DNA of 64,000 nt from Candidatus Auribacterota bacterium (GTDB lineage Bacteria > Auribacterota > JAFGBW01 > JAFGJP01). The DNA lies in contig JAGLFH010000037.1 in NCBI GenBank assembly GCA_023144635.1, forward strand, positions 26,489 to 90,488, written 5' to 3'. The first letter of the stretch is position 1, and every line of letters begins with the position of its first letter. The position numbers and the translations under genes are program-made. Positions 5,623 through 37,424 of the stretch are shown piece after piece. A model generated the notes under the pieces. It was not told the DNA's origin, made no database searches, and saw only the letters and a list, made by a program, of their open reading frames with translations.

Positions 5623-5666
5623 TTTCACGTGACCACGTTGACACGTGGAACGTGACTCACGTGGCG
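5623..5666 (+). repeat. CACGTG-rich 41-nt repeat module (copy 1)
   Basis: ctttCACGTGaccACGTtgacACGTGgaACGTGactcACGTggc; 41/41 identical to 37382-37422. Confidence 0.7.
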
Positions 5667-5774
5667 GAAGCAAATATTAATATTTCACTACGGAAAAGCA
5701 CGAAAAAAACTAAATTTAAAAAAACCTTTTCCTAGATTCCTGCTTCCGCAGGAATGACGTACGTTTTATACTTC

Positions 5775-5806
5775 TACACGGGCACAGCACGCTGTGCCCC
5801 TACTAC
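5775..5806 (+). repeat. REP-like hairpin unit (GTAG-palindrome on complementary strand)
   Basis: tacacGGGCACAGCacGCTGTGCCCctactac; 9-bp arms. Confidence 0.65.
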
Positions 5807-5811
5807 TTTTA

Positions 5812-5850
5812 CAGTGGTACGGGCAGGCGCCCCCGCGTACCGCTGCTCAC
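5812..5850 (+). repeat. REP-like hairpin unit, degenerate
   Basis: cagtGGTACGGGCAGGCGCCCCCGCGTACCgctgctcac; imperfect palindrome. Confidence 0.45.
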
Positions 5851-5918
5851 TTTTTATATTTTTCTTTTCTTTTTTATTTTATTTTAATGTCGTCGAAGAC
5901 ACCATTATTTTTATTTTT

Positions 5919-5950
5919 TTTACATGGGCGAAAGATTTTTCGCCCCTTGT
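5919..5950 (+). repeat. REP-like hairpin unit
   Basis: tacatGGGCGAAAgattTTTCGCCCct; core identical to 55368-55395. Confidence 0.7.
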
Positions 5951-6023
5951 ATGTTTTCACAATTCAGGTAACATCAGAGAAAATATGGGACGCAGATCAA
6001 TAGGATTAAGAGCTTTATTATCT

Positions 6024-6060
6024 TTCACACGGACAGGGACAAGCCCTGTCCCTACATACT
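6024..6060 (+). repeat. REP-like hairpin unit
   Basis: cacacGGACAGGGacaagCCCTGTCCctacatac. Confidence 0.7.
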
Positions 6061-6147
6061 TTTACTTTCTATGGTTCATGACTCTGTGTTCTCTGTGAAC
6101 GTGCTAAAAGTCCGCCGGGGCGGGTGGTGTGAAAGGCTTTTGCTTTT

Positions 6148-7659
6148 TTATCCATAATTTTTATCAATAAGACGCATAATATAATGTTTCTCTATTGCTA
6201 CAATCAGAACAACATGAAAAAAGATATAATGCAATGTATTCGTATCTACAAAAGAATGCACAAATGATCCTACGAAAACACCCAGTAAAGCTACTGATAT
6301 TAATTTTTCATCTTTTTTTAGTTTTTCTTTTGAAATAAATAAAAACATCTTATATATAAGAACAATGTAAAATATTAGTGCTGTCAGTCCTGCAAAAACA
6401 CCCATTTCCACTGAAAGGTTTAGAAAAAGATTATGAGCATGAAAATTATGAAATTCTATCTCTTTAGTAGCATACTTGAGCTTGTCAAAGAACAGCATCA
6501 TATCAATAATATAGGCTGGACCAAACTGTTTATAAAACTCCTCTCCCATATTCAAAAACCCTACTCCAAACAACGGAGAACGCTCTATCATTCTTAAAGA
6601 ATAATCCCATATCTGCCCCCTTCCGCTAAGCCCTGATTTTAAACGCAGAAGAAATATGATCTTCTCCAGATAAATCATAATAACGGCTACGACTGATGAT
6701 ACACCTGCAAAGACCATCTTCCACAAATGTTTAGGACGGACATATAGAAGCACTATCCCGCACCCTATCATCATATTAAGAAGCCCTCCTCTGCTAGAAG
6801 CAATAAGCTGTGCAAAAGCTATGCAAGCAAACAAAAAACCATAAAAGATCTTTAATGAGCGCTTCTTATTCACAAAAAACAAAACAAGGGCTATCGGCGC
6901 AATGGATGCAAGTACAGCACCAAAAATATTCTGATGAAAAAAAACAGAACTGGCTTTAAACTGTTTTAAATCACTTGCCTGCCAGCCAATTTTTAAAGCT
7001 ATATTCTGCCAACCTATGGGAACTATATAATCCTGAAGAAAAAGAAATTTTTGTTTTCTGACAACTATCCACTGCAATATACCGAAAAGAGCCAGAAAAG
7101 TAACGACCAGACAAAGGTTCCTAATAAATACTGAAACTTTCCTTTTTTCATTAAAATAATCACTTAAAGCTAGCATAAACAAAGGAAGAAGAAGCATTCC
7201 TAGGCCGCGAATAAAAGTCTTTGAGGGATTTTCTGCATTAATTGTTGATAAGAGGAAAAAAGTAACCAGAAGAAAAAGAAATTTTTTCGTAAACCCAAAA
7301 TATTTAAGACGAATCTTTACTATAGGCTCTGCATTTCTCTTTAATGACCATATGATACAAAATATAATTATGATTATAGGAGTCATGACCGGTATTGCAA
7401 AAGATATTTCATCAACAGGTGAGTTCTGAAAATACATCATTAGAAATATCAGCGCAACCGCAATATCAGGCTTAAAAAAGATAAGAGCTATTAAAAAAAC
7501 ACCACCAATAATAGCAATTGTATACAGATAGTTATAATTTGAAAAAAAGCTTATGCACCATCCTGCAAAAAGGATTATAAAAAAAAAGATTAAAAGTTTT
7601 TCAGTTTGATCTTTCAGTAAAATTTCTTCTACCCCACGTAAACAAGTTAATAAAAACAT
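6148..7659 (-). CDS. O-antigen ligase / Wzy-like polytopic membrane protein
   Basis: 503 aa, about 10-12 predicted TM helices plus a periplasmic loop, typical of the O-antigen ligase family; directly downstream of the Wzz-like gene. Confidence 0.55.
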   Translation of the reverse strand: MFLLTCLRGVEEILLKDQTEKLLIFFFIILFAGWCISFFSNYNYLYTIAIIGGVFLIALIFFKPDIAVALIFLMMYFQNSPVDEISFAIPVMTPIIIIIFCIIWSLKRNAEPIVKIRLKYFGFTKKFLFLLVTFFLLSTINAENPSKTFIRGLGMLLLPLFMLALSDYFNEKRKVSVFIRNLCLVVTFLALFGILQWIVVRKQKFLFLQDYIVPIGWQNIALKIGWQASDLKQFKASSVFFHQNIFGAVLASIAPIALVLFFVNKKRSLKIFYGFLFACIAFAQLIASSRGGLLNMMIGCGIVLLYVRPKHLWKMVFAGVSSVVAVIMIYLEKIIFLLRLKSGLSGRGQIWDYSLRMIERSPLFGVGFLNMGEEFYKQFGPAYIIDMMLFFDKLKYATKEIEFHNFHAHNLFLNLSVEMGVFAGLTALIFYIVLIYKMFLFISKEKLKKDEKLISVALLGVFVGSFVHSFVDTNTLHYIFFHVVLIVAIEKHYIMRLIDKNYG

Positions 7660-7672
7660 TCATTATAAGGAG

Positions 7673-9832
7673 TTACCTCCAGATCTTGTCAATAAAAGGA
7701 AATACTGGAATATGTGAACTTTTCTTTGCAATAAAAACATGAACATTTCGACCATGAACCAGTTTTGATTTAAAGAAAGCCTCTACATCTTCTATAGAAG
7801 TTTTATCATACTGAGTAACAAGAAGTGTCATATCTGCATGAGGTATGACTGTCTGCCAGTCGTCAGACAAATGAGTCGGTGTATTTTCAATAAATATCAC
7901 TTTATAATGACGCCTAAGAATAGGAATAAAATCTTTTAAATGCGCAAGGAGATAATATTCAACAGGAGAGACCCCCTTACCGCCTGCATAGAAATAATCT
8001 ATACCGTCTTTTGTTTTTTTTGTCATTATCTTTTCTAATTTATCTTCATCCACATCCTCTGCCTGAAAAGAATCCTCTTCATTTGAAGTCACTTCTTCAA
8101 GATTTGGATACTGAGCACTTCCCGATGTATTAAGATTTATTATCACCGGCTTAAGACCAAGTTTATTCAGGAAAACTGCCCAGTGATGCAACAAAAACGA
8201 CTTCCCTTCTTTACCGTTTATGCTGATAACTTGCACAACAAGTGAACTTCCATTCGTGTTTGAATATAACGTCCTTGTAAAATCTCTGATATTTCTTTCT
8301 GCAAATACTTTATGCCCCATATGTACAGACGGGAACTTCGGTACAGTACGCATTGAAGATATACCTTTTTGAAATTCAGCAAGATCTTCTTTTGACCTTA
8401 TCCTTCGTTGAGGAAGATCTATAAAAATTATGATAAAGAGACATACTGCACATGCAGAGCCCAGACACAATGCCAGAATGATAAATTTCCCTGATGTCTT
8501 TACAGGAGGCAAAGCAGGAGAAATTATTTTAACGACTTGAAGCTGCTCCTTATTCATTATTATTCTGTTCTTCTGCTGCTCCTTAATAAGGAACTGGTAA
8601 ACTTTTTGAGCAGTCGTAAGATCCATTTTGAACCTTACCATCTCCATTTCCAAAGCCGGAAGATCTTTTAATTTTCTCTCATAGATATCAACTATATCTT
8701 TGAGCGCTTCTTTCTTTGAGATCAATGCATATTTTTCGGATTCATTTTCAATAATACCTTTTAAAATATCCTGAATAAAAGGCTCTGTTGGAAGATTGTC
8801 ATAATTATCATTTACCATTCGCCTTATCTTATCTTTCATCTGTTTTTTCAGTTCATTGATCTGCCTGCGTATTGATTCAGCAGCACCAGGTGTAGCATAT
8901 CTATTTCGCTGTACGTTAAAATACTCATGTTCTAAAGAGACAAGTGCATTACGCGATTCTATAATAGATGAAGAATCAAACATCTCATCTGATTTTTTTA
9001 AATTTGATGCATATTTAGTAAACTTCTCTTTTAAGTTTTTGATAATTGCTGTCTTTTCTTTGATAGAGATTGCTACAATATTAAGCTCTGAATTATAACG
9101 GCTTAACGTTTCAAGATCTATTTTTGCTTCCAATGCAAGAGAATCGCTAAGTGCTATATTATATTCTCTTTGAAACCTTTCCATCTGGTCCTGAATATCA
9201 TGAAACTCACGTCGGGATCTTTCTGCTTCAGCAAGAACAAAGTCATACTGCAATTTTGCTTCACTATGCATAATATCAAGAAGTTTTTTTGAATACTCTG
9301 ATATGAGAACAGATACTATTTTATCGACCTTATCCCGGTAAGAATACTCTGCTTTTATTTTTGATATAAAAGTAAAAGGCTCATTTTTTATCTTTAGTAT
9401 ATTCTTTTTTAAAACTTTTATTTTTTTTCTTATTTTTCGCTCTTTTTTATCTTTAAGGTCTTTTTCAGTAGCATATTTGTCCATTATATTATCAAGCAGC
9501 CTTCCAACAGTAAGTTGAAAATAATCATATTTTATATCATCAACAAGATTTAGCTGCTCCACTACTTCACGAAGCACAGCATCGCTTTTTAAAAGAGCCA
9601 CATTAGTTTTCATATAGACAAGCGCACCCTGAGCTTCCATTGCAGGAGTTTCAACTGATGTTAAAGAAAGATTAGGGCTGATCATTATTTCAGCTTCTGA
9701 GCGATATTTGGGAAGAAAAATTATTTTAAGGAAAAATAATCCTGTAAAAAAAATAAAAATTAATGTAAAAATAAAAAATCTTTTAAAAAAGATCTCTGTT
9801 AATCTGGTAACAATTTTTTTAAATTCTTTCAT
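7673..9832 (-). CDS. polysaccharide chain-length determinant (Wzz/GumC-like) with C-terminal degenerate P-loop domain
   Basis: 719 aa; N-terminal TM, long coiled-coil periplasmic region, second TM, then a C-terminal domain with a degenerate Walker-A-like segment (SINGKEGKS). Confidence 0.55.
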   Translation of the reverse strand: MKEFKKIVTRLTEIFFKRFFIFTLIFIFFTGLFFLKIIFLPKYRSEAEIMISPNLSLTSVETPAMEAQGALVYMKTNVALLKSDAVLREVVEQLNLVDDIKYDYFQLTVGRLLDNIMDKYATEKDLKDKKERKIRKKIKVLKKNILKIKNEPFTFISKIKAEYSYRDKVDKIVSVLISEYSKKLLDIMHSEAKLQYDFVLAEAERSRREFHDIQDQMERFQREYNIALSDSLALEAKIDLETLSRYNSELNIVAISIKEKTAIIKNLKEKFTKYASNLKKSDEMFDSSSIIESRNALVSLEHEYFNVQRNRYATPGAAESIRRQINELKKQMKDKIRRMVNDNYDNLPTEPFIQDILKGIIENESEKYALISKKEALKDIVDIYERKLKDLPALEMEMVRFKMDLTTAQKVYQFLIKEQQKNRIIMNKEQLQVVKIISPALPPVKTSGKFIILALCLGSACAVCLFIIIFIDLPQRRIRSKEDLAEFQKGISSMRTVPKFPSVHMGHKVFAERNIRDFTRTLYSNTNGSSLVVQVISINGKEGKSFLLHHWAVFLNKLGLKPVIINLNTSGSAQYPNLEEVTSNEEDSFQAEDVDEDKLEKIMTKKTKDGIDYFYAGGKGVSPVEYYLLAHLKDFIPILRRHYKVIFIENTPTHLSDDWQTVIPHADMTLLVTQYDKTSIEDVEAFFKSKLVHGRNVHVFIAKKSSHIPVFPFIDKIWR

Positions 9833-10048
9833 AGCCCGTTTTCTGTAATGTATTATTGTTATTTAAATATAGTTTAACATAATACATATAAAATGTCAAC
9901 TTCTAATTAATATTTAATATATACCTATCTCCCTGAGTTACAACATAATAACTATTATTTCATATATTGATCAAATAAACACTACTATGCATATTTTTGA
10001 TACTTACATGAATTTTTGAAGAAAATGAAAAAAAATCAAAAATACAAC

Positions 10049-10711
10049 TTATCTTGAACGGGATTTTTCTATGTTTTTTTTGATTACCGAAAAATTTGAT
10101 GTCGAAGAACCTACCATATGCCCTTTTTTATCATATACGCTGACACTGGGTATAGATGTTATCTTGTGCTGTTTTGCAACAGGACTACCCCAATTATCAA
10201 TGTTTATCTTTCTTAAGATAACATCATCATATTTTTTTATTAGATCTTCAAGCTTAGGGCCCAACACTTTACACGGACCGCACCAATCAGCATAAAAATC
10301 AAAGACAACAACGTACCCCCTTACTGTATTACTTTTAATGTTTACCTTGCTGCCCTTTGATATGGTTTTTATTCTTGCAACATTACCTAATAATTTCTTT
10401 CTTGGCTGTGGACTTTCTTTTAAGCCTGGATCAGCTTCTTTTGCTTTAGAACCAGTTTTTTTTGACTGTATATAGACTCTTTTTATTTCTGAAACATTGA
10501 CTTTTTCTGTTTTATTATCACTCATCTTTACAAGATATCTTTTACCGTTAAAATACAATAACTTTCCCTTAATGACCTGACTGTCCTTTTTTATTATCAT
10601 GACAATCTGCTCAAACCCTTTGTTTTCACTGAAATAAATATTCTCTGAAAAATAAGAGCCTATTATGATTATCAGCAATACTACCATAATGAAAATTAAG
10701 AAATTCTTCAT
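10049..10711 (-). CDS. thioredoxin-domain protein, membrane anchored
   Basis: 220 aa; N-terminal TM; C-terminal FDFYADWCGPCK thioredoxin active site (WCGPC); AGGAAA SD. Confidence 0.7.
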   Translation of the reverse strand: MKNFLIFIMVVLLIIIIGSYFSENIYFSENKGFEQIVMIIKKDSQVIKGKLLYFNGKRYLVKMSDNKTEKVNVSEIKRVYIQSKKTGSKAKEADPGLKESPQPRKKLLGNVARIKTISKGSKVNIKSNTVRGYVVVFDFYADWCGPCKVLGPKLEDLIKKYDDVILRKINIDNWGSPVAKQHKITSIPSVSVYDKKGHMVGSSTSNFSVIKKNIEKSRSR

Positions 10712-10775
10712 ATTTTTTCCTGTGTTTTATATTAAATATTTTACTATAAATAACTTTTAGATTAAAGCTAAAGGA

Positions 10776-11474
10776 TCAATTGTCATACAGAAATGATATC
10801 CTCTTCTTTTTTCTGAAAAACGACAGCAAAAAGACCCCCATAATAAATCCTCCTATGTGAGCCCACCAAGCAACGCCTCCTGATGATAATGAATCTTGCG
10901 AAGACAAAGCTGAAAATATCTGTATAAGTAACCATAACCCAAAATAAAAAAATGCAGGAACTTCTAAAAAATAAGGTATGAAAAAAACAGGAACAAGGAC
11001 AACTATTCTTGCCCTTGGAAATATTAGCATATAAGCCCCCATGACAGCTGCTATTGCCCCTGAAGCACCTATTATAGGAACAGCTGAATGAATATTAAAT
11101 AAAAAATGTGCCATATTTGCAATAACTCCACAAAGTATATAAAAAACCAGAAACCCAACATGACCTACATGATCTTCCACATTGTCTCCAAAAAGCCAAA
11201 GCGTCCACATGTTCACAAAAAAATGCATCCACCCACCATGAAGGAACATATTTGTAATAAACGGTAATGGATTATACTGCAGAAGAGCTCTTTCCATTGC
11301 CCAATTAAGATCAATATAGCGGGCAGGAACCATACCGTAAATCGCAAAAAACCTCTGTAAAGCATCCTTTGAGAGTGATTTTTCATACAGAAAAACTAGA
11401 GCACTTACAATTATGATAGCCCCTGTCATAAGAGGAGGTTTTTGATGAGGGTTTATATCATTAAGTGGTATCAT
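10776..11474 (-). CDS. rhomboid family intramembrane serine protease
   Basis: 232 aa polytopic; GASGAIAAVMGAY (catalytic Ser motif GxSG) and AHIGGFIMG (catalytic His). Confidence 0.85.
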   Translation of the reverse strand: MIPLNDINPHQKPPLMTGAIIIVSALVFLYEKSLSKDALQRFFAIYGMVPARYIDLNWAMERALLQYNPLPFITNMFLHGGWMHFFVNMWTLWLFGDNVEDHVGHVGFLVFYILCGVIANMAHFLFNIHSAVPIIGASGAIAAVMGAYMLIFPRARIVVLVPVFFIPYFLEVPAFFYFGLWLLIQIFSALSSQDSLSSGGVAWWAHIGGFIMGVFLLSFFRKKKRISFLYDN

Positions 11475-11595
11475 ATCTTTAATTTTCTCTTACATTTACT
11501 ATAAGCTAACATCTTTCTAAATCAAATAATAATTATTATTATTGACCAAAACGTTTTCAAACATAATAATTACTCTAAATTTAAAGGAGGGCTTA

Positions 11596-11700
11596 ATGAG
11601 GGTAATTGAAGATGATTTTGAAGATGACCTAGGGGATGATTTTGAAGATAATGAAACAGATGATGATGCTGAAGATGATGATAACTATGACTATGATTAA
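11596..11700 (+). CDS. small highly acidic peptide (34 aa)
   Basis: ATG 11596 preceded by GGAGG with 5-nt spacer; MRVIEDDFEDDLGDDFEDNETDDDAEDDDNYDYD; followed by a perfect 16-bp hairpin plus T5 at 11751-11791. Coding status unproven. Confidence 0.3.
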   Translation: MRVIEDDFEDDLGDDFEDNETDDDAEDDDNYDYD

Positions 11701-11750
11701 TCTTTTGAAGACGAAGATAATCAAGATTAATGAGTGAATTTAATAATATA

Positions 11751-11791
11751 CTACAAAGGACAGCATTCAAATGCTGTCCTTTGTAGTTTTT
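11751..11791 (+). terminator. intrinsic terminator-like hairpin (16-bp perfect stem, 4-nt loop, T5)
   Basis: ctacaaaggacagcat-tcaa-atgctgtcctttgtag followed by ttttt; ends 8 nt before the rlmN ATG. Confidence 0.6.
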
Positions 11792-11799
11792 AGGTCACC

Positions 11800-12837
11800 A
11801 TGGAAAAAAATGACATAAAACTTATTGATACTGAAAAGCTAAAAGCCATTATGACATCAAATGGTTTTAAGGCATATAGAGCCTCCCAGATACAACACGC
11901 AATATGGAAAGAAGGCGCAAATACCTTTGAGATGATGCCCATTCCTTTAAACCTTAAAGATTTTCTTAAAAAACATTTCTATATTTATACTTGTAAGGTC
12001 ATAAATAAAAGTTCCAGTAAGGATGGAACCATTAAATTTCTTTTAGAATTTTTGAATAAAACATATATAGAAACAGTTTTTATTCCGTCATCATCACACA
12101 ACACACAATGCATATCATCCCAATCAGGATGCAAAATGAGATGTCGTTTTTGCGCAACAGGTGAAAGTGGTTTTAAACGAGATCTTTCAGCCGGAGAAAT
12201 AATAGAACAGATCCTGATAATACAGAAATTAACCGGAGAAAGTATCGGAAATATTGTTGTTATGGGAATGGGAGAGCCTTTTGAAAATTATAACAATTTA
12301 ATGCAGGCGATCCGTATCATAAATTCAAAACATGCTCTTAACATAGGAGCAAGAAGAATCACTGTTTCAACTGTAGGGATCCCAGAAGCGATAAAACGCT
12401 TTGCTGATGAAAACATACAGGCACGGCTTTCGATATCACTTCATGCAAGCGAAAATTCACTTCGCTCTCAAATAGTACCCATAAACAAAAAATATCCAAT
12501 AGAAGATATATTAAAAGCCTGTCGTTATTATAATAAAAAAGCAAAAAAATATGTCAGCTTTGAATACATCCTTTTAAAAGGGATAAATGACTCTGAAAAA
12601 CATGCAATATCACTTTCAAAAAGACTAAAGGGCTGGAAATGCAGAGTAAATTTAATTCCTTACAACCCTGTAAATTCATCAGAATTTATGCGATCAGATA
12701 ATGGTCAAATAAAAACTTTCAGTAACATCCTTAAAAAGTTCGGCATCAATACCACCATAAGAAAAGAAAGAGGCGTGGACATAAAAGCAGCTTGCGGCCA
12801 GTTAAAAAGTTCTTTTTTGAAAAACAAAAATACTTAA
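11800..12837 (+). CDS. rlmN: 23S rRNA (adenine2503-C2)-methyltransferase RlmN, radical SAM
   Basis: 345 aa; FKAYRASQ N-terminal motif, CxxxCxxC radical-SAM cluster (CKMRCRFCATG), GMGEP motif. Confidence 0.9.
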   Translation: MEKNDIKLIDTEKLKAIMTSNGFKAYRASQIQHAIWKEGANTFEMMPIPLNLKDFLKKHFYIYTCKVINKSSSKDGTIKFLLEFLNKTYIETVFIPSSSHNTQCISSQSGCKMRCRFCATGESGFKRDLSAGEIIEQILIIQKLTGESIGNIVVMGMGEPFENYNNLMQAIRIINSKHALNIGARRITVSTVGIPEAIKRFADENIQARLSISLHASENSLRSQIVPINKKYPIEDILKACRYYNKKAKKYVSFEYILLKGINDSEKHAISLSKRLKGWKCRVNLIPYNPVNSSEFMRSDNGQIKTFSNILKKFGINTTIRKERGVDIKAACGQLKSSFLKNKNT

Positions 12838-13717: not shown

Positions 13718-13733
13718 GGACAGAGGGAAGAAC

Positions 13734-13790
13734 AGTTAATTGGTTTACTTGTTAAATAGTTAACTGGTTCAAGGAGCACTGAAGCGCGAT
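13734..13790 (+). repeat. intergenic repeat module (CAGTTAATTGGTT...GTTAACTGGTTCAAGGAGCACT)
   Basis: About 55-nt module also at 50633-50690 (+) and 46503-46557 (-). Confidence 0.6.
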
Positions 13791-13846
13791 AATTATAAAA
13801 AAAAAGATAACTGTGTAAGGAAAAATTACAATTTACATTTTGCGTG

Positions 13847-13885
13847 GATCCCGCGGTTAAACACGCGGGATGACATACGTTTTGG
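13847..13885 (+). repeat. hairpin repeat module (GATCCCGCG...CGCGGGATGACATACGTTTT)
   Basis: 8-bp stem atcccgcg/cgcgggat; second copy at 43281-43316 has the same stem and a different loop. Confidence 0.55.
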
Positions 13886-13982
13886 TTTCGAATTTTAAAC
13901 CTTTTACGGGGGTTGCTTCGTCGCAATAAATCACAATGATTTACTGCTTCTCGCAATGATAACGTTTTCTTTTTTATTACTT

Positions 13983-14020
13983 TTTATACGGGCGTATTGC
14001 AATACGCCCCTACATACTTT
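13983..14020 (+). repeat. REP-like hairpin unit
   Basis: tacGGGCGTATTGCAATACGCCCctacatac; perfect 20-nt palindrome, identical to 48090-48109. Confidence 0.75.
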
Positions 14021-14134
14021 TATGTTTTTCTCTTCGTGGTTTTTGTGGTTAATTAAAATAATGCGTCGCAGACACCATAATTTTAAGTACTTTAGCTCAC
14101 TTTAGGCATTTAAAACTTTATATATCTGTCTTAC

Positions 14135-25365: not shown

Positions 25366-25499
25366 TACAGACACAAGACTCAAGCAAAACCTCAGAATCC
25401 AAAGACCTAAAACAAAGAAGAAATAACAAAAGGCACAAGACTCAAAAGCGTTGTTCGTCGTTCGTGATTCGGGGTTCGTGAATTGAGCGCTCCGCGATA

Positions 25500-25660
25500 T
25501 AAAATAAAAAGCAGAGAACAGAAAAAAATCGAGGGATGAAGGACGAGGGACAAAAAAACAGAAGATGCACGATACAAGATACACGATAAATAAAAGCAAA
25601 AGACTTTAGACTCAAGGGGAAAAGCACAAGATAGAAAAGAATAATAAAGAATAAATGTCC
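25500..25660. repeat. T-depleted purine-rich low-complexity tract
   Basis: agcagagaacagaaaaaaatcgagggatgaaggacgagggacaaaaaaacagaagatgcacgatacaagatac...; several GGA motifs. Confidence 0.45.
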
Positions 25661-25776: not shown

Positions 25777-25810
25777 TTTACAGCGGGCGCAGGCTAGCGG
25801 CGCCCCTACT
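25777..25810 (+). repeat. REP-like hairpin unit
   Basis: cagcGGGCGCaggctagcgGCGCCCctactcac. Confidence 0.6.
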
Positions 25811-25872
25811 CACATTCTACTTTTTATGTTTTACAAGGGCGGTTCGCTTATTTTACACCAAATCCTTGCCCT

Positions 25873-28480: not shown

Positions 28481-28483
28481 ACC

Positions 28484-28520
28484 GTTTTACAAGGGCGGAT
28501 TTAGAATCCGCCCCTACATA
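28484..28520 (+). repeat. REP-like hairpin unit
   Basis: acaaGGGCGGATTtagAATCCGCCCctacata; identical core at 55528-55548. Confidence 0.75.
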
Positions 28521-28597
28521 CCTTTTATGTTTTTTGCTTTTATTTTTTTCTGTCTTCTGGTTTTTCCAATCTGTGTGGTCTGTGCAACTTTTATTTA

Positions 28598-29421: not shown

Positions 29422-30636
29422 TTACATATTTTCGATTATTTTTTCTGCAAATTCTGAACACTTAAGAAGTGTTGCACCTTCTATCTGTCTGTGCAGATCA
29501 TATGTAACTGTTTTTTTGTGGATCGCACCGCTAATACCAACAAATATTAGATGAGCTGCTTCCTTCCATCCCATATATTCAAGCATAAGTTTTGCAGAAA
29601 GTATGAGTGAGCCCGGATTGACTTTATCCTCGCCAGCATATTTCGGAGCTGTTCCGTGTGTAGCTTCAAAAACAGCTATGCCATCTCCTATATTAGCACC
29701 GGGAGCAAGACCAAGTCCTCCTACCTGAGCTGCAAGCGCATCTGACATATAATCACCATTAAGATTAGGCATTGCAAGTACGCTGTACTCCAAAGGACGA
29801 AGCAATATCTGCTGGAACATAGCATCAGCTATTCTGTCCTTTATGAGAATTTTACCCGCAGGCATTTTCCCATCATGCTCTTTCCATAACTCTTCTTCTG
29901 ATATCGTTTTATCACCAAAATTCTCTTTTGCTTCCATGTATCCCCAATCACGGAACGCCCCTTCTGTAAATTTCATAATATTACCTTTATGAACTAAAGT
30001 CACGGAGTCACGGCCATTATCAATTGCATATTGTATTGCTTTATGGACAAGACGTCTTGTTCCTTCAGGAGATATAGGTTTTATTCCAATACCAGATGAA
30101 GTACGTATATTACACCCCATCTCTTTATTTAAAAAGCTTAATACTTTTTCTGCTTCATCACTTTTACTGCTCCATTCAATACCAGCATAAACATCTTCAG
30201 TATTTTCACGAAAAATTATCATATCAACTTTCTCTGGCGCTTTAACAGGACTTGGTACTCCAGGAATATACTGAACAGGACGCACACAAGCATAAAGTTC
30301 CAACTTTTGCCTAATAGCAACATTAAGGCTTCTTATTCCTCCACCAACAGGAGTTGTTAAAGGCCCTTTGATTGCCACACGATATTTTTTTATTTCTTCC
30401 AAAGTCTCATCAGGCAAATAATCACCCATTTTTTCATTGGCCTTTTCACCTGCATAGATCTGTTTCCATTCGATCTCTTTCTTTCCGTTATAGGCTTTCT
30501 TTATAGAAGCATCAATAACAGATCTTGTGGCTCTCCATATATCCGGCCCAATGCCATCACCTTCAATATAAGGTATTACCGGTTTATCAGGCACAACAAG
30601 AGTACCATCGTCTTTTAACTCTATAATAGACATCAA
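29422..30636 (-). CDS. icd: isocitrate dehydrogenase (NADP-dependent)
   Basis: 404 aa; long identical stretches to the canonical prokaryotic Icd as remembered ([56 protein letters not shown]). Confidence 0.95.
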
Positions 30637-30651
30637 TTTCTCCTTCCTTTT

Positions 30652-31818
30652 TTACTTGCTCAACTCTTTAGCAAACTCTTCAATACGATCAAGTCCGCGC
30701 TTTATTGTCTCTTCATCAGATGCATAAGAAAGCCTTATATTTTCATCTACTCCAAATGCTTTACCCGGTACTACTGCAACATTTTTTTCTTTAAGTATTT
30801 TCTCTGCAAATTCAAATGATCCCAGTCCAAGTTCTTTTATATTTGGGAAAACATAAAAAGCTCCTTCAGGAATATTACAGGTTATACCCGGTATGTCTCC
30901 AAGACGGTTTACAATATAATCGCGCCTTTTTTCAAAAGCCTGTCTCATCTTATTTATCTCGTCATCCACCCAAAAAGAATTTTCTAATCCCCGCATTATA
31001 ATAGACACTGGATTTGAAGTACTGTGGCTCTGAAGCTTTGATATACCTTTTACTACCTCAACAGGTCCTGCAATATAGCCTATTCGAAGACCTGTCATTG
31101 AATATGATTTTGAACATCCGTTTACAACGATTGTCTGCTTAAATATATCTTCGTTAAGAGAAGCAATCGATACATGTGTTGCAGGAGAATATATGATCTT
31201 TTCATAGATCTCATCAGATATTACAATAATATTTTTCTTAACGCAAAGTTCAGCGATTTTCTCAAGATCTTCTTTTTTATAAACAGCCCCGGTAGGATTA
31301 CACGGACTATTGATTATAAGAAGCTTTGTGCGGGATGTTATTTTGCAAGATATCTCTTCTGCAGTAAGCCTGAAGCCGTTTTCTTCATGGCACTTTACTG
31401 AAATCGGTTTTCCTCCTGCAAGCTTTACCATCTCAGGATAACTTACCCAGTATGGATCAGGTATAAGTACTTCATCATCCGAATCTATAAGAGTAAGTAT
31501 TATATTAAATATAGAATGCTTAGCTCCACATGATATAACTACATTTTCCGGCAAATAATCAAGCCCGTTATCTTTTTTAAATTTTTCACACACAAGCTCT
31601 TTTAATCTTAATGTTCCGGTTGCCGGAGTATATTTTGTAAAACCTTCATCTAATGCTTTTTTGATACTTTCCTTAACAAGAGAAGGTGTATCAAAATCCG
31701 GCTCCCCTGCACCAAAACTTATTACATCAAGCCCCTCGCTTTTCATTTTTTTTGCTTTGCTTGTTATAGCAAGTGTAGGAGAAGCCTCTATACGCGATAT
31801 TCTTTTTGAAATCTTCAT
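30652..31818 (-). CDS. aspartate / aromatic aminotransferase (class I PLP-dependent)
   Basis: 388 aa; GAGEPDF, NSPCNPTG and PLP-lysine region GCSKSYSMTGLRIGY. Confidence 0.85.
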   Translation of the reverse strand: MKISKRISRIEASPTLAITSKAKKMKSEGLDVISFGAGEPDFDTPSLVKESIKKALDEGFTKYTPATGTLRLKELVCEKFKKDNGLDYLPENVVISCGAKHSIFNIILTLIDSDDEVLIPDPYWVSYPEMVKLAGGKPISVKCHEENGFRLTAEEISCKITSRTKLLIINSPCNPTGAVYKKEDLEKIAELCVKKNIIVISDEIYEKIIYSPATHVSIASLNEDIFKQTIVVNGCSKSYSMTGLRIGYIAGPVEVVKGISKLQSHSTSNPVSIIMRGLENSFWVDDEINKMRQAFEKRRDYIVNRLGDIPGITCNIPEGAFYVFPNIKELGLGSFEFAEKILKEKNVAVVPGKAFGVDENIRLSYASDEETIKRGLDRIEEFAKELSK

Positions 31819-32987
31819 TATAAATACTCCTTTATTACTTTTTTAAAATAATTCTCTTTAATTCCTATTATTTTCATTTCACGCAAAGCATTTTTCGGAG
31901 AATCAGAAGCATGAGCAGTGTTTTCCATAACATTCTGACCAAATTCTTTTCTGACCGTAGAAACTGCAGCTTTTGAAGGATCTGTAGAACCAAGCTGATC
32001 ACGTATTTTTTCAATAGCATTATATCCCTGATAACAAAGAGCAAGACATTTTACTTTACCACGTGCTTTTTTTTCTTTTGCAGATATCGACTTTGTCAGA
32101 TCATATCCTGTCATAAAATTAACGATTTGATTAAAACTCGTTTCAGCATTTAATCCCTTTAACTTCTCTGTGATAGAATCTACTAGTTTTGAAGGAATAT
32201 CAAAAGGGAATGCATCATTCAAAGAATTCTCTACTTTATTTCTTACCATAAATTTCAATTTTTCCCTCAAAACTTCTTTTACAGGCCCGTAAAACTCTTC
32301 TGCCTGAGAAACACTCATCTGAAGGACTTTTGCACCTATTATAAAAAGACCTGTCCTTGAAAAAGAATCTATAATATTACCGGGACGGCCTGAAGGAAAT
32401 CTAAAATTATCGGGCTTTATAAGTACAAGCGTTTTCTGAACCTTTTCCATTTTACGATAGCTTACTACATCTTCAAGAAGACCACCTTCTTTATCACTAT
32501 ACTTTGCAAGTATTTCTAATTGTTTTTTTGTCTCACTAATTGAAACACCGGTTACTACTGCAGGCTCAAAATATTTTATATTTCCATCCACATCCTGAAT
32601 ATAATCACCATAAGTCTCACGTATAGTCTCACCGCCGCTATCTGTTGATACAGCCCCAACAACGTTTTTTAATTTTTCAACTGCCTCGTCACCTTTAAAA
32701 AGAAGACACATCACACGCTTTCTTTCTCCGGTGACTTTATCAGGCGCATAGTTTTCGTACAAGTATTTAACAAATAACTCTCTTACCTTTGCCTTATGTT
32801 TTTTATCTGTTATAACTTCTCTTATTGCCTCAACATATTCATCTATCATTTTTTTTGAAGGAGCAAACATCCTTGCACCTATAAGCTCAAGTTGCGTTCT
32901 TGCAAGAAGCCGGCTTATAATACCACCTGTGCGGGATTTTCTTAGGGAATACGGATTAATGAAAACATATCCTATCTCTTTTGCCAT
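31818..32987 (-). CDS. tandem nucleoside-diphosphate-kinase-like domain protein
   Basis: 389 aa. C-terminal half has NDK motifs (KTLVLIKPDNF...GNIIDSF...EEFYG...NTAHASDS with putative catalytic His); N-terminal half is a degenerate NDK-like repeat (GYVFINPYSL...GGIISRLL) lacking the His motif. Confidence 0.6.
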   Translation of the reverse strand: MAKEIGYVFINPYSLRKSRTGGIISRLLARTQLELIGARMFAPSKKMIDEYVEAIREVITDKKHKAKVRELFVKYLYENYAPDKVTGERKRVMCLLFKGDEAVEKLKNVVGAVSTDSGGETIRETYGDYIQDVDGNIKYFEPAVVTGVSISETKKQLEILAKYSDKEGGLLEDVVSYRKMEKVQKTLVLIKPDNFRFPSGRPGNIIDSFSRTGLFIIGAKVLQMSVSQAEEFYGPVKEVLREKLKFMVRNKVENSLNDAFPFDIPSKLVDSITEKLKGLNAETSFNQIVNFMTGYDLTKSISAKEKKARGKVKCLALCYQGYNAIEKIRDQLGSTDPSKAAVSTVRKEFGQNVMENTAHASDSPKNALREMKIIGIKENYFKKVIKEYL

Positions 32988-33277
32988 ATAAATACCTCTC
33001 TTTTACTTTTAATTAACCCGTCTACGACGGGGACTTTTTTTAGCCACTAAGGGACACTAAGAATTACTAAGAGGCAGCAAAGCTGCCTTTTTTTGATACA
33101 CACTTCCTCTTTTTTTCCCTTCGTGCCTTCTTCGTGAACTTCGCGGTTAATTCACTTTTTTTAAAAAAGGAAATTCTTATATGTTTTAATTATAAAAAAC
33201 TTTGCTTTTTAAAAGTTTGAATAGTATATATTATTATCATCATTTTTAAAAATATTTTTTTAATTTGGAGTACTATA

Positions 33278-33715
33278 ATGAAGATTGTTGCCCAGCGTGT
33301 TAAAAAAGCTTCTGTGTTTGTTGATGGAAAAGAAATCGCTAGCATGAATAAAGGTACTCTCATATATTTTGCTGCTGCTAAAGAAGATAATAAAAAAAAT
33401 GCTGACTGGCTTGCAGATAAAATCTTAAGCCTCAGGATATTTGAAGATGAATTTGGGAAAATGAACAGGTCTTTAATCGATGTAAAGGGAAGCTTAATGG
33501 TAGTTCCACAATTTACTCTTTACGGAAATTGCAGAAAAGGCAAAAGACCGGGTTTTGATGAAAGTGCCTCTCCTGAAACAGCTAATGAACTATTCAAATA
33601 CTTCGTAAATAAGCTAAAAGAATCTTCTATTCCGGTATATACAGGTAAATTCCGATCCCACATGGAAGTTACAAGCATAAATGACGGCCCTGTTACTTTT
33701 ATAATCGAAAAATAA
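33278..33715 (+). CDS. dtd: D-aminoacyl-tRNA deacylase
   Basis: 145 aa; MKIVAQRVKKASV N-terminus and C-terminal NDGPVT (SQFTL / GPVT motifs); GGAG SD. Confidence 0.9.
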   Translation: MKIVAQRVKKASVFVDGKEIASMNKGTLIYFAAAKEDNKKNADWLADKILSLRIFEDEFGKMNRSLIDVKGSLMVVPQFTLYGNCRKGKRPGFDESASPETANELFKYFVNKLKESSIPVYTGKFRSHMEVTSINDGPVTFIIEK

Positions 33716-33990
33716 GACTCAATAAAACGTGGTGCGTGATGCGTTGTGAGTTATGCGTTCAAGGAGCACTGCGTAATAAAAAACGTCATTCGTCGTTCGG
33801 GATTCGTGGTTCGTTCAAGGAGCGCTTCCGCCTTCGTTAAAACTATGGCGAGACAGGAAAGCGAGATAAAAAAACATTAAAAGCGTGATTCGGGGTTCGT
33901 AGTTCGTAAATGGAGAGAACACAGAGTCATGAACCACGTCCTAAACCACATAGGGTTCAGGATAAACAGAAAAAGTAAAAGGTAAAATGT

Positions 33991-34025
33991 GAGTAGGGTT
34001 CTGGCCTGCCTGAACCGTGTAAAAG
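33991..34025 (-). repeat. REP-like hairpin unit (inverted orientation)
   Basis: Plus strand gaGTAGGGTTCtggcctgcctGAACCgtgtaaaag; identical core at 43158-43187. Confidence 0.6.
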
Positions 34026-34231
34026 ATAAAATGTGAAAGTAAGAAAGGGTTACAGCGTTCAAGGTTATTCGATGGAGTTTATTCTGAGCGGAGTCTAAGA
34101 TCCATTCACGAAGAACACGAAAGACAAATTACGAATACCCCTATTTTCTCCCCCTCTGTCCTCTGCTTTCCGGGCTTTTTCTTCAGTCTTGAGTCTGGTG
34201 TCTTGAGTCTTGAGTCTTACATAAAAATCCC

Positions 34232-34260
34232 TTGTTTATTATATATAAAATGTATATAAT
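34232..34260 (+). promoter_or_regulatory. candidate sigma70-type promoter upstream of purQ
   Basis: TTGTTT (34232-34237), 17-nt spacer, TATAAT (34255-34260), about 38 nt before the purQ ATG. Confidence 0.35.
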
Positions 34261-34297
34261 GCCATTCCCTGAAACCTGAAAAATAAAGGAATCTAAT

Positions 34298-34993
34298 ATG
34301 AAGTTCGGAGTTGTTGTTTTTCCCGGTTCTAATTGTAATGAAGACTGTTACTGGGCTCTTAAAAATGATATTGGCGTTGATGTCAGATATATATGGCACA
34401 AATCAACTGAAATCGATGATCTGGACGCAATCGTCCTTCCGGGCGGATTCAGTTACGGAGATTATTTAAGAGTAGGGTCCATTGCGCGATTTTCACCTGT
34501 TATGAATTCAGTTATCGACTTTGCTAAAAAGGGAAAACTTGTGATCGGGATATGTAATGGCTTTCAAATCCTTTTGGAAGCAGGACTGCTTCCCGGAGCT
34601 ATGCTTAAGAACAAACATTTAAGTTTTATATGCAAATACGTATCTCTAAAAGTAGAGAATTCATCTACACCTTTTACTATAGAAACTAAAGATCATAATA
34701 CATTAAACATTCCTATCGCTCACGGAGAAGGAAATTATTATATAGATAATAACGGACTTGATGAGTTAAAAAAGAATAACCAAATAGTATTTAAGTATTC
34801 TAATAAAGATGGAAAAACTGATGATAATACAAATCCCAATGGTTCAGTTGAAAATATAGCCGGTATCTGCAACAAAGAGAAAAATGTTCTCGGAATGATG
34901 CCGCATCCTGAAAGGTGCTGCAACGCTAATTTAGGTTCCGTGGACGGACAATCTATATTTTTATCCATGAAAAATTTTATTAAGCAGAATTAG
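34298..34993 (+). CDS. purQ: phosphoribosylformylglycinamidine synthase subunit PurQ (glutaminase)
   Basis: 231 aa; [26 protein letters not shown], catalytic GICNGFQ and HPER triad. Confidence 0.92.
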
Positions 34994-35002
34994 GAGCTAT
35001 TT

Positions 35003-37240
35003 ATGTATAAAGATCAACCCGTAACTGACAAACTTGTAGAAGAACACGGTATTTCTCCTGAAGAACATGTAAATATAAAAAAGATGCTCGGAAATAGAGA
35101 AATGAATTTTACCGAGCTTGGACTTTTTTCGGTAATGTGGTCAGAACACTGTAGTTATAAGAACAGCAAACCTCTTTTAAAAACATTACCAAACACCGGA
35201 GATAACATACTTGTCGGAGCCGGAGAAGAAAATGCCGGTGTTATAGATATTGGCGACGGCTGGGCAATATCCTTTAAAATAGAATCTCACAACCACCCTT
35301 CTGCTATTGAACCTTTTCAGGGAGCAGCTACAGGTGTAGGCGGTATAATACGTGATATTTTTACTATGGGAGCAAAACCGATCGCTGTAATGGATTCATT
35401 AAGATTCGGTGATCCATCAAAGCCACGTACAAAATGGTTAGCAAATGGAGTAGTTGCAGGTATTGCTCATTATGGAAACTGCATTGGACTTCCCACAATA
35501 GCAGGGGAGACTTTTTTCGATTCGTCCTATGAAACAAATCCTCTTGTTAACGCCTTTTGCCTTGGAATATTAAGACATGAACATCTTGCAAAAGGAGCGG
35601 CTACAGGTGTAGGTAATCCTGTGTTTTATGTAGGAGCGGCTACAGGACGTGATGGAATTCATGGAGCAACGTTTGCATCAGAAGACCTTGATGATTCTTC
35701 TGAAGAAAGACGCTCTGCTGTTCAAGTAGGAGATCCTTTTATGGAAAAGCTTCTTATGGAAGCATGCCTTGAACTCTTAAAGACCGGTGCTGTTGTTGGT
35801 ATTCAGGATATGGGTGCAGCAGGCCTTGCATGTTCCTGTTCTGAGACGGCAAGTAGAGGTAACGCAGGAACTGATGTAGACCTTTCCCTCGTGCCACAGC
35901 GTGAAGAAGGAATGATACCTTACGAGATCCTGTGTTCAGAATCACAGGAACGTATGCTTGTTATCGTCAAAAAAGGAAGAGAAAAAGAAGTTAATGATAT
36001 ATTTGAAAAATGGGATCTTCATGCTGTTCAAATAGGAACAGTTATTGACGGAGAAAAAATGATCGTCCGCAACAACGGTGAAATCGTTGCTGATGTAAAA
36101 GCAAAAGACCTTACGGACAATGTTCCTGAATATACAAGAAAAGTTATTGAGGCAGATTATTTCAGCAAACTCAAAGAGCAAAATGATAAAGATATTGAAA
36201 AAGCACTTGCTAAAAATAATTTAGATCATAATAATTCTCTATCAAAACTTCTCTCATCACCAAATATTGCAAGTAAACATGAAATATACGAGCAGTATGA
36301 TCATATGGTAAAAACAAATTCTACTGTTCTTCCGGGTTCTGATGCTGCAGTACTTTTAGTAAAAGAAGCAGACAAGATCCTTGCCATGACTACTGATTGT
36401 AATGGACGTTACTGCTACGGAGATCCATTTACAGGAGCAAAAATAGCTGTTAGCGAAGCAGCAAGAAATCTTACATGCAGCGGAGCAACACCAATTGCCG
36501 TTACTAACTGCCTTAATTTTGGTAATCCATATAATAGTGATGTTTACTGGCAGTTCAATCTGGCCATAAAAGGCATGAGTGAGGCCTGCATTAAATTTGA
36601 CACACCTGTAACAGGAGGAAATGTCAGCTTCTATAACCAAAATCCTGATGGTGCTGTCTTCCCCACTCCTGTAATAGGAATGGTGGGATTAATAGAAAAA
36701 AAAGAACACATAACTTCTCAATTTTTTAAGGAAGCAGGTGATATGATAGTACTCCTTGGGCCTGTAGGAGAAGAATTAGGTGCCTCTGAATACATGAACG
36801 TAATAGAAGGTGTCTCAATTGGAACACCCCCAGCATGCGACCTTGAAATGGAATACAATATTCAGAGCTTTTGTAGAGAATCTATTAAAAGCGGATTTGT
36901 TAGTTCTGCTCATGACATTTCAGAAGGCGGACTTGCGGTATCTTTAGCAGAATGCTGTTTTTCTTCCCTTGGACATCTTGGAGCTGCAATAGAACTTCCA
37001 TATGAAATAGTAAATAATACAAGTGCTCTTTTTGGAGAGACACAATCACGTATAATACTTTCCATTAAAAAAGATAAAATTAAAGATTTCATGAATTTTA
37101 GTGCAAATTATCGCGTTCCATTCTGTGAAATCGGCAAAGTTACTGAAGAAAAAGATCTTATTATTTCAGCTAAAGGAAAAAAATTAATAGAAAGATCTAT
37201 TAATGATCTTTTTGATTCCTGGATGATAGGAGTGCTTTAA
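35003..37240 (+). CDS. purL: phosphoribosylformylglycinamidine synthase subunit PurL
   Basis: 745 aa; FSVMWSEHCSYK, ESHNHPS, two AIR-synthase-related domains. Confidence 0.95.
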   Translation: MYKDQPVTDKLVEEHGISPEEHVNIKKMLGNREMNFTELGLFSVMWSEHCSYKNSKPLLKTLPNTGDNILVGAGEENAGVIDIGDGWAISFKIESHNHPSAIEPFQGAATGVGGIIRDIFTMGAKPIAVMDSLRFGDPSKPRTKWLANGVVAGIAHYGNCIGLPTIAGETFFDSSYETNPLVNAFCLGILRHEHLAKGAATGVGNPVFYVGAATGRDGIHGATFASEDLDDSSEERRSAVQVGDPFMEKLLMEACLELLKTGAVVGIQDMGAAGLACSCSETASRGNAGTDVDLSLVPQREEGMIPYEILCSESQERMLVIVKKGREKEVNDIFEKWDLHAVQIGTVIDGEKMIVRNNGEIVADVKAKDLTDNVPEYTRKVIEADYFSKLKEQNDKDIEKALAKNNLDHNNSLSKLLSSPNIASKHEIYEQYDHMVKTNSTVLPGSDAAVLLVKEADKILAMTTDCNGRYCYGDPFTGAKIAVSEAARNLTCSGATPIAVTNCLNFGNPYNSDVYWQFNLAIKGMSEACIKFDTPVTGGNVSFYNQNPDGAVFPTPVIGMVGLIEKKEHITSQFFKEAGDMIVLLGPVGEELGASEYMNVIEGVSIGTPPACDLEMEYNIQSFCRESIKSGFVSSAHDISEGGLAVSLAECCFSSLGHLGAAIELPYEIVNNTSALFGETQSRIILSIKKDKIKDFMNFSANYRVPFCEIGKVTEEKDLIISAKGKKLIERSINDLFDSWMIGVL

Positions 37241-37381
37241 AAAAGTGTTGAGTGTTAAGTTTTGAGTGATGAGTTGAAGGAGCACTTCGTGCGAAGATAG
37301 ATACAAGATACAGGATAAAAACAAGAACAGAAGACAGAGGACAGAAAGAATAGAATTACATTTAACAAATTATTGAGGTTG

Positions 37382-37424
37382 CTTTCACGTGACCACGTTG
37401 ACACGTGGAACGTGACTCACGTAG
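37382..37424 (+). repeat. CACGTG-rich 41-nt repeat module (copy 2)
   Basis: Identical to 5623-5663; lies between purL and purF. Confidence 0.7.

Follow-up and report, generated by a model that had tools for sequence, protein, structure and literature searches.

What is the short ACGT-rich sequence that stands twice, letter for letter, in one stretch of bacterial DNA? The stretch, hereafter the window, is 64 kb of a metagenome-assembled genome (MAG) of Candidatus Auribacterota (labeled Candidatus Aureabacteria at NCBI), a member of the Planctomycetes-Verrucomicrobia-Chlamydiae (PVC) group, with a window GC content of 34%. The 41-mer CTTTCACGTGACCACGTTGACACGTGGAACGTGACTCACGT has two exact matches in it (0 mismatches), both on the + strand, at 5622–5662 and 37382–37422. 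An original prediction had reported the full identity of these two copies, which we confirmed, although its start of the first copy, 5623, was one base too high. The window contains no third copy, even when up to three mismatches are allowed, and 100 dinucleotide-preserving shuffles yielded no match. The second copy repeats the first in direct orientation at a distance of 31,760 nt. Their similarity extends over 45 of 47 positions (5619–5665 versus 37379–37425), and the flanks farther out are unrelated, as had been predicted. The identity between them ends no more than 3 nt from the module, and the window therefore gave no sign that the module is part of a longer mobile element, the outcome that the original prediction had named as its own refutation.

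The internal design of the sequence was also largely as predicted. In copy 1, five ACGT cores start at 5627, 5635, 5643, 5650, and 5659, so that the predicted spacing of 7–9 nt is realized as 8, 8, 7, and 9 nt, and the two module copies are the only ACGT clusters in the window. The nested inverted repeats were recovered, with CCACGT/ACGTGG lying within TCACGT/ACGTGA. Three full CACGTG palindromes, as claimed, are found in copy 1 (5626, 5642, and 5658) but not in copy 2, in which the third box is CACGTA (37418) because the base following the 41-mer is A rather than G. In other genomes, host repeats occur both with and without the module; with the boundaries set from these, the true unit proved to be 40 nt long, T-CACGTGACCACGTTGRCACGTGGAACGTGACTCACGT-GG, and in the window it is represented as follows.

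5625–5664, + strand: ACGT module copy 1, 40-nt unit TCACGTGACCACGTTGACACGTGGAACGTGACTCACGTGG, the second commonest variant in public data
37385–37424, + strand: ACGT module copy 2, identical to copy 1 except at unit position 39 (A for G, 37423)

The module was sought in public data with two patterns. A scan of one genome per species across 185,579 species, in which only the CACGT cores were fixed, returned 64 loci, and a metagenome scan, in which only the 5' 23 nt were fixed, returned 86 contigs, the majority with the same full unit (retrieved loci and contigs are numbered L### and homologous proteins P####). The near-unchanged sequence CACGTGACCACGTTG[A/G/T]CACGTGGAACGTGACTCACGTGGC was carried by 58 of the 64 loci; the others (L015, L017, L019, L024, L040, and L061, from Acidobacteriota and Gemmatimonadaceae) were plain CACGT tandem repeats unrelated to the module. 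The 58 loci derive from approximately 25 species-level MAGs of the Lentisphaerae, Victivallales/Victivallis, Kiritimatiellae, and Verrucomicrobia/Verrucomicrobiota, with 1–14 loci per genome, the richest genomes being CAZVVD... and MHBH01..., and a locus GC content of 44–70% (34–70% over all instances). Pooling gave 105 instances whose flanks differ; these represent 33 sequence variants and, under deliberately lenient clustering, occupy at least 24 flank contexts. Nearly all of the 150 loci had one match per contig, and most contigs were single-copy; an inverted pair 1.9 kb apart was present in L030/L084. No match was found in the viral contigs, plasmids, and phages scanned. Rfam gave none at gathering thresholds (window and five loci) and only sub-threshold, chance-level matches at relaxed thresholds around both kinds of locus. 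In the full-text literature searched, neither orientation of the module, written as DNA or as RNA, occurred in any paper, and a literature search returned no paper on repetitive extragenic palindromes (REPs) of Lentisphaerae or on CACGTG in Verrucomicrobia.

This distribution bears directly on whether the repeat could be due to chance, to an assembly or adapter artifact, or to local duplication of a longer element in this genome. Some public instances do lie near contig ends, and contigs of the same strain from Logan break in the neighboring repeats. However, the shuffles produced no match, independent assemblies of the same strain reproduce both window copies, and the identity between the two copies is short; moreover, the instances come from many unrelated projects, in PVC lineages only and always with lineage-specific flanks. 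These results refute such an origin, the probability of which we regard as virtually nil. A self-cleaving ribozyme, a CRISPR repeat, and a tRNA or rRNA fragment were also rejected: the module never forms an array, the genome scan gave no matches in rRNA or tRNA genes, and there is no pattern of variable stems around a conserved core.

The 40-nt module has exact boundaries and has entered many unrelated sequences as a discrete unit, without target duplication. When sites of a Lentisphaerae host repeat were collected by host sequence alone, 34 distinct sites were empty and 10 were filled with the 40-nt unit, while one held another small element and none held a decayed module. The empty forms read GTTGGAGTTCA^CAGCTTTAGCGTG and GTTGGAGT[T/A/C]^CAA[A/G]CTT..., the unit enters exactly at ^, and every filled subtype has an empty counterpart. 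In a Verrucomicrobiota host element, filled (...ATCA[40 nt]CGGCCC...) and empty (...ATCA^CGGCCC...) forms occur within one genome. The filled and empty forms differ without any duplication of target bases by the unit.

The clearest case within a coding sequence is an IS91-family transposase gene (Pfam Y2_Tnp and Zn_Tnp_IS91), whose 3' end contains the unit in five metagenome contigs, inserted between the TA and the C of a Tyr codon. The insertion is out of frame and truncates the protein, which then ends in ...PDYHVTTLSRGT; exact removal of the 40 nt restores ...PDYDTEPVMMYANG, an intact C-terminus found in many homologues, including the transposase that NCBI names as that of Kiritimatiella glycovorans. 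One recorded protein, P0185, has the interrupted form. In a sixth contig (L113), the module lies in an IS91 pseudogene dotted with other short inserts, and the homologues P0222 and P0240 carry a different small insert at nearly the same place as the module, indicating that this spot of IS91 attracts small insertions. Nesting was also reciprocal: in L092 and L119, a small element lies within the module, after its position 23, and in L090, L094, and L124, the module lies within that element.

In many cases, though not in all, the insertion point was at the tip of an existing palindrome or close to it. In reconstructed empty sites, at least six uninterrupted pairs starting no more than 6 nt from the junction were found in 37% of contexts versus 10% of control positions (p = 2e-5); a looser count of cross-pairs in minimum free energy structures around the junctions did not discriminate (p = 0.13). 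Truncated forms of the module (24, 31, and 33 nt; L071, L086, and L131) are located at hairpin tips, and two of them lie exactly at the tip of a host palindrome, in L071 and in L086, which reads gttggagttca-[31 nt]-tgaactccaac. In 66% of contexts, the unit is directly preceded by A, and in 84% it is directly followed by C; the dinucleotide on the 5' side varies (CA in 37%, then GA, TA, TT, and others). The two copies in the window have hosts of their own.

5575–5622, + strand: heptad word-array element GTGCGTG TGATGCG TTGAGAG TGGTGCG TTCAAGGTGCTTCC, whose terminal hairpin holds copy 1 (context, outside the module)
5616–5622, + strand: 5' arm of the host stem around copy 1, TGCTTCC, also the end of the word-array element
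5666–5672, + strand: 3' arm of the host stem around copy 1, GGAAGCA, from folding
37376–37432, + strand: REP-like host hairpin around copy 2, with arms AGG-TGCT (37376–37383) and AGCA-CCT (37423–37430) and a CCCTAC head (37427–37432)

Copy 1 and its flanks are predicted to form one long stem-loop, both as RNA (-28.3 kcal/mol, z = -4.05) and as DNA (-18.3 kcal/mol, z = -5.07). The host hairpin of copy 2, GGTTGCT...AGCACCCTAC, belongs to a REP-like family headed by CCCTAC/GTAGGG that is plentiful in the window, and hosts of this CCCTAC-headed type also hold the module in L083, L129, L133, L141, and L144.

These boundaries also bear on a further explanation, namely that the module is a site for site-specific recombination of the lox, dif, or att kind and that the two window copies are the attL and attR of an excisable 31.7-kb segment. 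Its size and nested inverted repeats (arms of approximately 13 nt around a short spacer) resemble the core sites of tyrosine recombinases, the window copies are in direct orientation, and L030/L084 has its inverted pair. However, the intervening segment holds housekeeping genes, including rlmN-like, dtd, purQ, and purL, and no integrase was present among the 20 window open reading frames (ORFs) scanned, which cover part of the segment. The boundaries are of the insertion type, and the at least 24 unrelated contexts are spread over many species, mostly with a single copy per contig. A recombination site is therefore very improbable.

The claim that the module could form a structure was supported by folding, in both RNA and DNA predictions. 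One strand folds as a 31-nt hairpin with two 6-bp helices, TCACGT/ACGTGA and CCACGT/ACGTGG, and a TGRC loop, followed by a 9-nt tail, CTCACGTGG. For copy 1, this gives the following.

5625–5630 paired with 5650–5655, and 5633–5638 paired with 5643–5648: predicted helices of copy 1, with the loop at 5639–5642 and the 3' tail at 5656–5664

Several mutually exclusive folds share equal energy; among them, alternatives that pair the first box with the last have the same predicted energy but fit the variation less well. The ends of the module are imperfect inverted repeats of 7–8 nt, TCACGTGA ... TCACGTGG. Across the 105 instances, variation was concentrated at position 17 (38 instances), position 24 (11), position 25 (19), and positions 36–40 (26 in total), which in the 31-nt hairpin form the loop, the internal bulge, and the 3' tail, and was absent from positions 1–6, 8–16, and 18–23; some of the positions were fixed by one or other search pattern, although each was free in at least one scan.

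The module is far more conserved than its surroundings, and it is conserved in sequence, not merely in pairing. Among 13 diverse copies of the Verrucomicrobiota host element, 16 base pairs in the host hairpins showed compensatory changes versus none in the module helices, and the mean pairwise identity was 96% in module columns versus 64% in host columns. In the five IS91 copies, the module was identical at 40 of 40 positions, while the flanks were only 57–93% identical. Thus, the predicted strong constraint, copying, or both was borne out: the 40 nt are near-unchanged across many PVC genomes while their surroundings diverge. Because the stems are conserved beyond pairing, sequence-specific recognition is indicated rather than ordinary selection on RNA structure, and the near-identity of a 40-nt non-coding module across distantly related PVC lineages implies that something must read almost every base.

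We tentatively read the module as a very small non-autonomous insertion element that is recognized by its sequence by a trans-acting factor, an explanation whose chances we place a little short of even. Such a factor would read the folded module strand nearly base by base and would copy or move the unit into single-stranded hairpin regions; our best guess for the mobilizer is an HUH-type enzyme, as for REPs and REP doublets (REPINs), IS200/IS605, and IS91 elements. The module would then ride in host repeats, in elements resembling miniature inverted-repeat transposable elements (MITEs), and in an IS91 element, and no regulatory role for the flanking genes would be implied.

Several observations weigh against this reading. 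The 20 window ORFs scanned included no transposase, and a crude Y1-HUH motif was absent from 940 kb of flanking DNA. Unlike in IS200/IS605, no fixed target sequence lies on the 5' side; clear pairing between the flanks is seen in only approximately 40% of contexts; 1–14 copies per genome is low for a selfish repeat; and comparison of close strains yielded no clean pair of filled and empty states at an orthologous site. There are practically no decayed copies: none at the sites defined by host repeats and no partial blastn-short matches in the loci searched. Neutral selfish copies should decay, and the perfect residents of the diverged IS91 copies consequently point to gene conversion, to repeated insertion at a hot spot, or to purifying selection acting on every copy. 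Taken together, the low copy number, the missing decayed copies, the perfect IS91 residents, and the failure to find the enzyme favor per-copy selection, on either a protein-binding DNA site or an RNA hairpin, although the same points could also be explained by gene conversion or recurrent hot-spot insertion.

As a DNA site, the four or five ACGT boxes would be read as nested inverted repeats, and the double-stranded module would be bound by a conserved PVC protein, possibly a ribbon-helix-helix, ParB-like, or nucleoid-associated protein, with purifying selection acting on each copy and the repeats merely carrying it. The lack of compensatory change in the module while the host hairpins covary, the intact module inside the diverged IS91 copies, and the missing decayed copies are all consistent with this idea. 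Variation limited to the center of the inverted repeat (position 17), the linker (24–25), and the last box would correspond to the conserved half-sites of an operator, and the lack of a clear orientation bias relative to genes also fits. However, the spread is sporadic (approximately 25 of 185,579 species representatives): a related Auribacterota genome is not among the matches and has a purL-purF spacer without the module, and Kiritimatiella glycovorans, with its intact IS91 homologue, is not among the matches of the genome scan. In addition, the locations are junk-like (within a transposase gene or IS91 pseudogene, in MITE-like elements, and in the loops of REPs), no gene class is linked to the module, the box spacing is irregular, and there is no match to the ParB site parS, of whose 16 consensus positions the module gives 8 and the window flanks raise the total to 10. 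We consider a host-selected DNA site possible but unlikely.

At the RNA level, the module would be a hairpin bound or processed by a sequence-specific protein, for example, a nuclease substrate or a stabilizer of 3' untranslated regions, and co-transcribed with its carrier repeats. The stable RNA fold of copy 1 with its host flanks, the sense orientation of both window copies downstream of a + strand gene, and the coincidence of the variable positions with the hairpin loop, bulge, and tail are all in keeping with such a role, and in the Verrucomicrobiota element the module is surrounded by hairpins that covary and by linkers that are conserved, as is typical of structured RNAs. In contrast, the module helices do not covary, which argues against ordinary RNA-structure selection, and the competing folds of equal energy, the absence of an Rfam family, the 61 instances without a clear strand bias relative to ORFs (crude gene calls), and the lack of a terminator-like T run after the module also count against it. 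We consider an RNA-level role improbable.

Reading the module as a small insertion element invites comparison with known systems. The closest descriptive precedent is the small dispersed repeats (SDRs) of heterocystous cyanobacteria, which Elhai and colleagues reportedly described in Genome Research in 2008 as “very small mobile repeated elements.” SDRs resemble the module in measuring tens of nucleotides, far below MITE size, in forming hairpins, in making precise insertions that are evident from filled and empty sites, in lacking target duplication, an encoded protein, and a known mobilizing enzyme, and in being nested in other repeats. The module agrees with them in size and dispersal (40 nt, 105 instances with distinct flanks, and at least 24 contexts) and in its precise presence or absence without target duplication in host repeats and the IS91 gene. 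It differs from SDRs in its length (40 nt versus 21–27 nt), PVC hosts, low copy number, and construction from ACGT-centered 8-nt words, as well as in being near-invariant from Auribacterota to Lentisphaerae, Kiritimatiellae, and Verrucomicrobiota at a locus GC content of 34–70%.

The closest mechanistic precedents are the HUH-type single-strand transposases that act on REP/REPIN, IS200/IS605, and IS91 ends. The ends of IS200/IS605 and IS91 elements are substrates of HUH-type single-strand transposases, and Nunvar and colleagues reportedly described in 2010 the mobilization of REP elements by REP-associated tyrosine transposases (RAYTs). REPs and REPINs are mobilized by RAYTs, which are IS200-like Y1 HUH transposases (Bertels & Rainey 2011, PMC3116915). 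Like the module, they are short, extragenic, imperfect palindromes thought to be read as folded single strands in trans and inserted without duplication, and the CCCTAC/GTAGGG hairpins of the window, one of which hosts copy 2, resemble classical REPs. Unlike REPs, the module has no GT[AG]G head in the required position on either strand, the head being confined to the host hairpins; it does not occur in inverted doublets; it is present in 1–14 rather than hundreds of copies; and distant lineages share it unchanged, in contrast to REPs, each of which belongs to one species and its RAYT. The window ORFs scanned included no RAYT gene, and a crude motif search of 940 kb of flanking DNA detected none. 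The module also departs from palindrome-associated transposable elements derived from IS200/IS605, since it has no fixed 4–5-nt target on the 5' side and a single compound hairpin instead of one at each end.

MITEs such as Correia/NEMIS are non-autonomous, dispersed elements of approximately 100–500 nt, and Rickettsia palindromic elements (RPEs) can sit in protein-coding genes. The module shares with them its non-autonomous, dispersed nature and the inverted symmetry of its termini, and, like an RPE, it can occupy a protein-coding gene, that of the IS91 transposase. It differs in its 40-nt length and in the out-of-frame, truncating insertion in the IS91 gene; compared with the terminal inverted repeats and target-site duplications of MITEs, it has only imperfect 7–8-nt ends and no duplication. 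Among protein-binding sites, the met boxes of MetJ are 8 bp long, AGACGTCT, and parS is a 16-bp palindrome, TGTTNCACGTGAAACA. The ACGT-centered palindromic boxes approximately 8 bp apart recall both, and the first box of the module, TCACGTGA, equals the parS core, which is likewise conserved across distant lineages. However, the boxes of the module are of the CACGTG type rather than AGACGTCT, with their spacing irregular; beyond the 8 central positions of parS, TCACGTGA, the window flanks add only two (10/16); and the instances are scattered inside mobile and repeated DNA. The module is best filed with the very small dispersed mobile repeats, among which its conservation across distant PVC lineages is unusual.

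The neighboring genes did not point to a function. Copy 1 lies in a convergent spacer between a family-1 glycosyltransferase gene (4419–5513, +) and a Wzy_C/O-antigen-ligase-like gene (6148–7659, -), and copy 2 lies between purL (35003–37240) and purF (37548–38975). The called start codon of the glycosyltransferase gene is probably misplaced. The original prediction had raised shared regulation of the glycosyltransferase/O-antigen-ligase genes and purF; regulation of neighboring genes by the module was not supported, as the neighbors differ among instances, 61 instances showed no clear orientation bias relative to neighboring ORFs (crude gene calls), and no promoter- or terminator-like site overlaps either window copy. 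By eye, the TTGACA of the module has no -10 partner and the TGGCAC of its G variant no sigma-54 -12 element, arguing against a promoter; the absence of a terminator-like T run after the copies argues against an intrinsic terminator. In the related Auribacterota genome (PurF 82% identical), the purL-purF spacer has similar short repeats and no ACGT module, which also undercuts shared regulation, although this spacer is too diverged to judge gain or loss. Among the ORFs around the first 64 loci, compared by all-against-all blastp, no family was near the module in more than five loci, and the recurring neighbors (sulfatases, pseudopilins, URO-D-like, PIN, and Fic proteins) are common PVC families, so a cis-encoded partner was rejected for these loci; the lack of a recurring family is as expected for a non-autonomous element. 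The syntenic Victivallis spacers L010 and L159 (flanking protein 95% identical) have different repeats, with the module in L010 only, although L159 does not represent a cleanly empty site; together with the related Auribacterota spacer, this may reflect fast turnover of such spacers. At the sites in the window itself, every contig that encodes the flanking proteins comes from the same strain and is identical.

The spacers around the module are rich in other repeats. At least eight window elements share one design, in which four or five degenerate 7–8-nt words are followed by (C/G)AAGGAGCRCT and a small hairpin, and GC-rich hairpins ending in CCCTAC are frequent.

13728–13780, 25444–25493, 33725–33770, 33783–33826, 37245–37286, and 50628–50680, + strand: word-array elements
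46510–46572, - strand: word-array element
5575–5622: variant word-array element
5775–5810, 5908–5957, 6007–6071, 13985–14028, 25784–25816, and 28489–28532: CCCTAC-ended GC-rich hairpins
33979–34029, 43140–43228, 46356–46406, 48085–48205, and 55355–55567: further CCCTAC-ended GC-rich hairpins

The word sets differ among the elements (GTTCGTC GTTCGTG ATTCGGG; AGTTAAT TGGTTTA; GTGTTGA GTGTTAA), the majority of which directly follow a stop codon in the sense orientation; they have no Rfam match, and the same design recurs in the related genome L153 (2716–2760 and 5590–5630). The CCCTAC hairpins, GTAGGG on the other strand and often followed by ACTTTT, look like GTAG-headed REPs, and no RAYT gene was seen in the window. 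The family AGATCCCGCG-loop-CGCGGGATGACAACGTTTT, with the variant AGATTCCTGC...GCAGGAATGAC, occurs at 5735–5768, 13846–13886, 43280–43318, and 55410–55460 and also in L153, a related Auribacterota genome (2858–2890). Purine-rich word arrays (GACAGAAGACAGAGGGCAGATAACAGAA and GATAGATACAAGATACAGGATAAAAACAAGAACAGAAGACAGAGGACAG) fill spacers at 25500–25640, 37290–37350, 50497–50535, 2688–2732, and 50909–50953 (-), and the flanks in PVC MAGs have comparable arrays of other words (GTGACCA, AAGAATA, and GGAAAGTA). Direct repeats of 70–75 nt, 79–80% identical and spaced 185 and 454 nt apart, occupy 2348–2876 in an apparently non-coding stretch (2341–3646). In the short-read data of this strain, all four assemblies made independently (three from Logan and one from ENA; L155–L158) break at approximately 5737–5883, in the spacer beside copy 1, indicating that the repeats of this spacer are multi-copy in the genome.

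A second small module, cctgtctcgccat...cgaaggcgg, occurs in the window at 5519–5558 and 33824–33850 (-) and has the Lentisphaerae form gtccgccgtagc...gcgaaggcggaagc (L116, L034, L037, and L003), so that it appears to be common to different phyla. In L116, a 36-nt version lies in frame in an IS91 transposase gene (HLGL-PGRRSSKSEGGW-QQGV), with a similar insert in P0222 and P0240. In Verrucomicrobiota/Kiritimatiellae MAGs, a multi-hairpin element of approximately 230 nt extends from about -190 to +60 around the ACGT module.

L007, L011, L016, L023, L045, and L062: members of the 230-nt element
L006, L014, L042, L101, L127, and L143: relatives of the 230-nt element

This element is bounded by TA, has the inverted ends TAGCCTGA...TCAGGCTA, and keeps the linkers ACGTG, AACGTGG, ACCCCGTTT, ATCA, CGGCC, and CAGGTTA. 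It is multi-copy, has no ORF, and is not in Rfam, and RNAalifold found 16 covarying base pairs in it; it may represent either a MITE or a structured RNA not yet described. Longer ACGT-word arrays akin to the module were present in the metagenome contigs L130 and L128/L079, with three tandem 16-nt units TCACGTGACCACGTYG in L130, suggesting that duplication of 8- or 16-nt words gave rise to the 40-nt unit or can lengthen it.

In practical terms, the module marks repeat-rich spacers that break assemblies, and it warns against taking every perfect repeat close to a gene for a regulatory site. Repeats of such a length are usually confined to one lineage and soon decay, whereas the module is essentially identical across distant PVC lineages of very different base composition, and its identity persists even inside fast-evolving repeats and a transposase gene. 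It is possible, although we hold this as the lesser chance, that the module is the recognition hairpin of an undescribed system shared by several PVC lineages, being either the smallest horizontally spreading mobile DNA unit known, moved by a hairpin-specific enzyme, or a domesticated cassette that a conserved DNA- or RNA-binding factor keeps under purifying selection at every copy. If true, either option would explain its letter-perfect conservation from the 34%-GC Auribacterota genome to loci of approximately 70% GC in Verrucomicrobiota-type MAGs. If its reader is a transposase-like enzyme, the module would represent a new class of extremely small mobile DNA and would illustrate how such DNA passes from genome to genome by hitch-hiking in insertion sequences and REP-like repeats; if the reader is a binding protein, it would represent a conserved, PVC-specific system of nucleic acid recognition.

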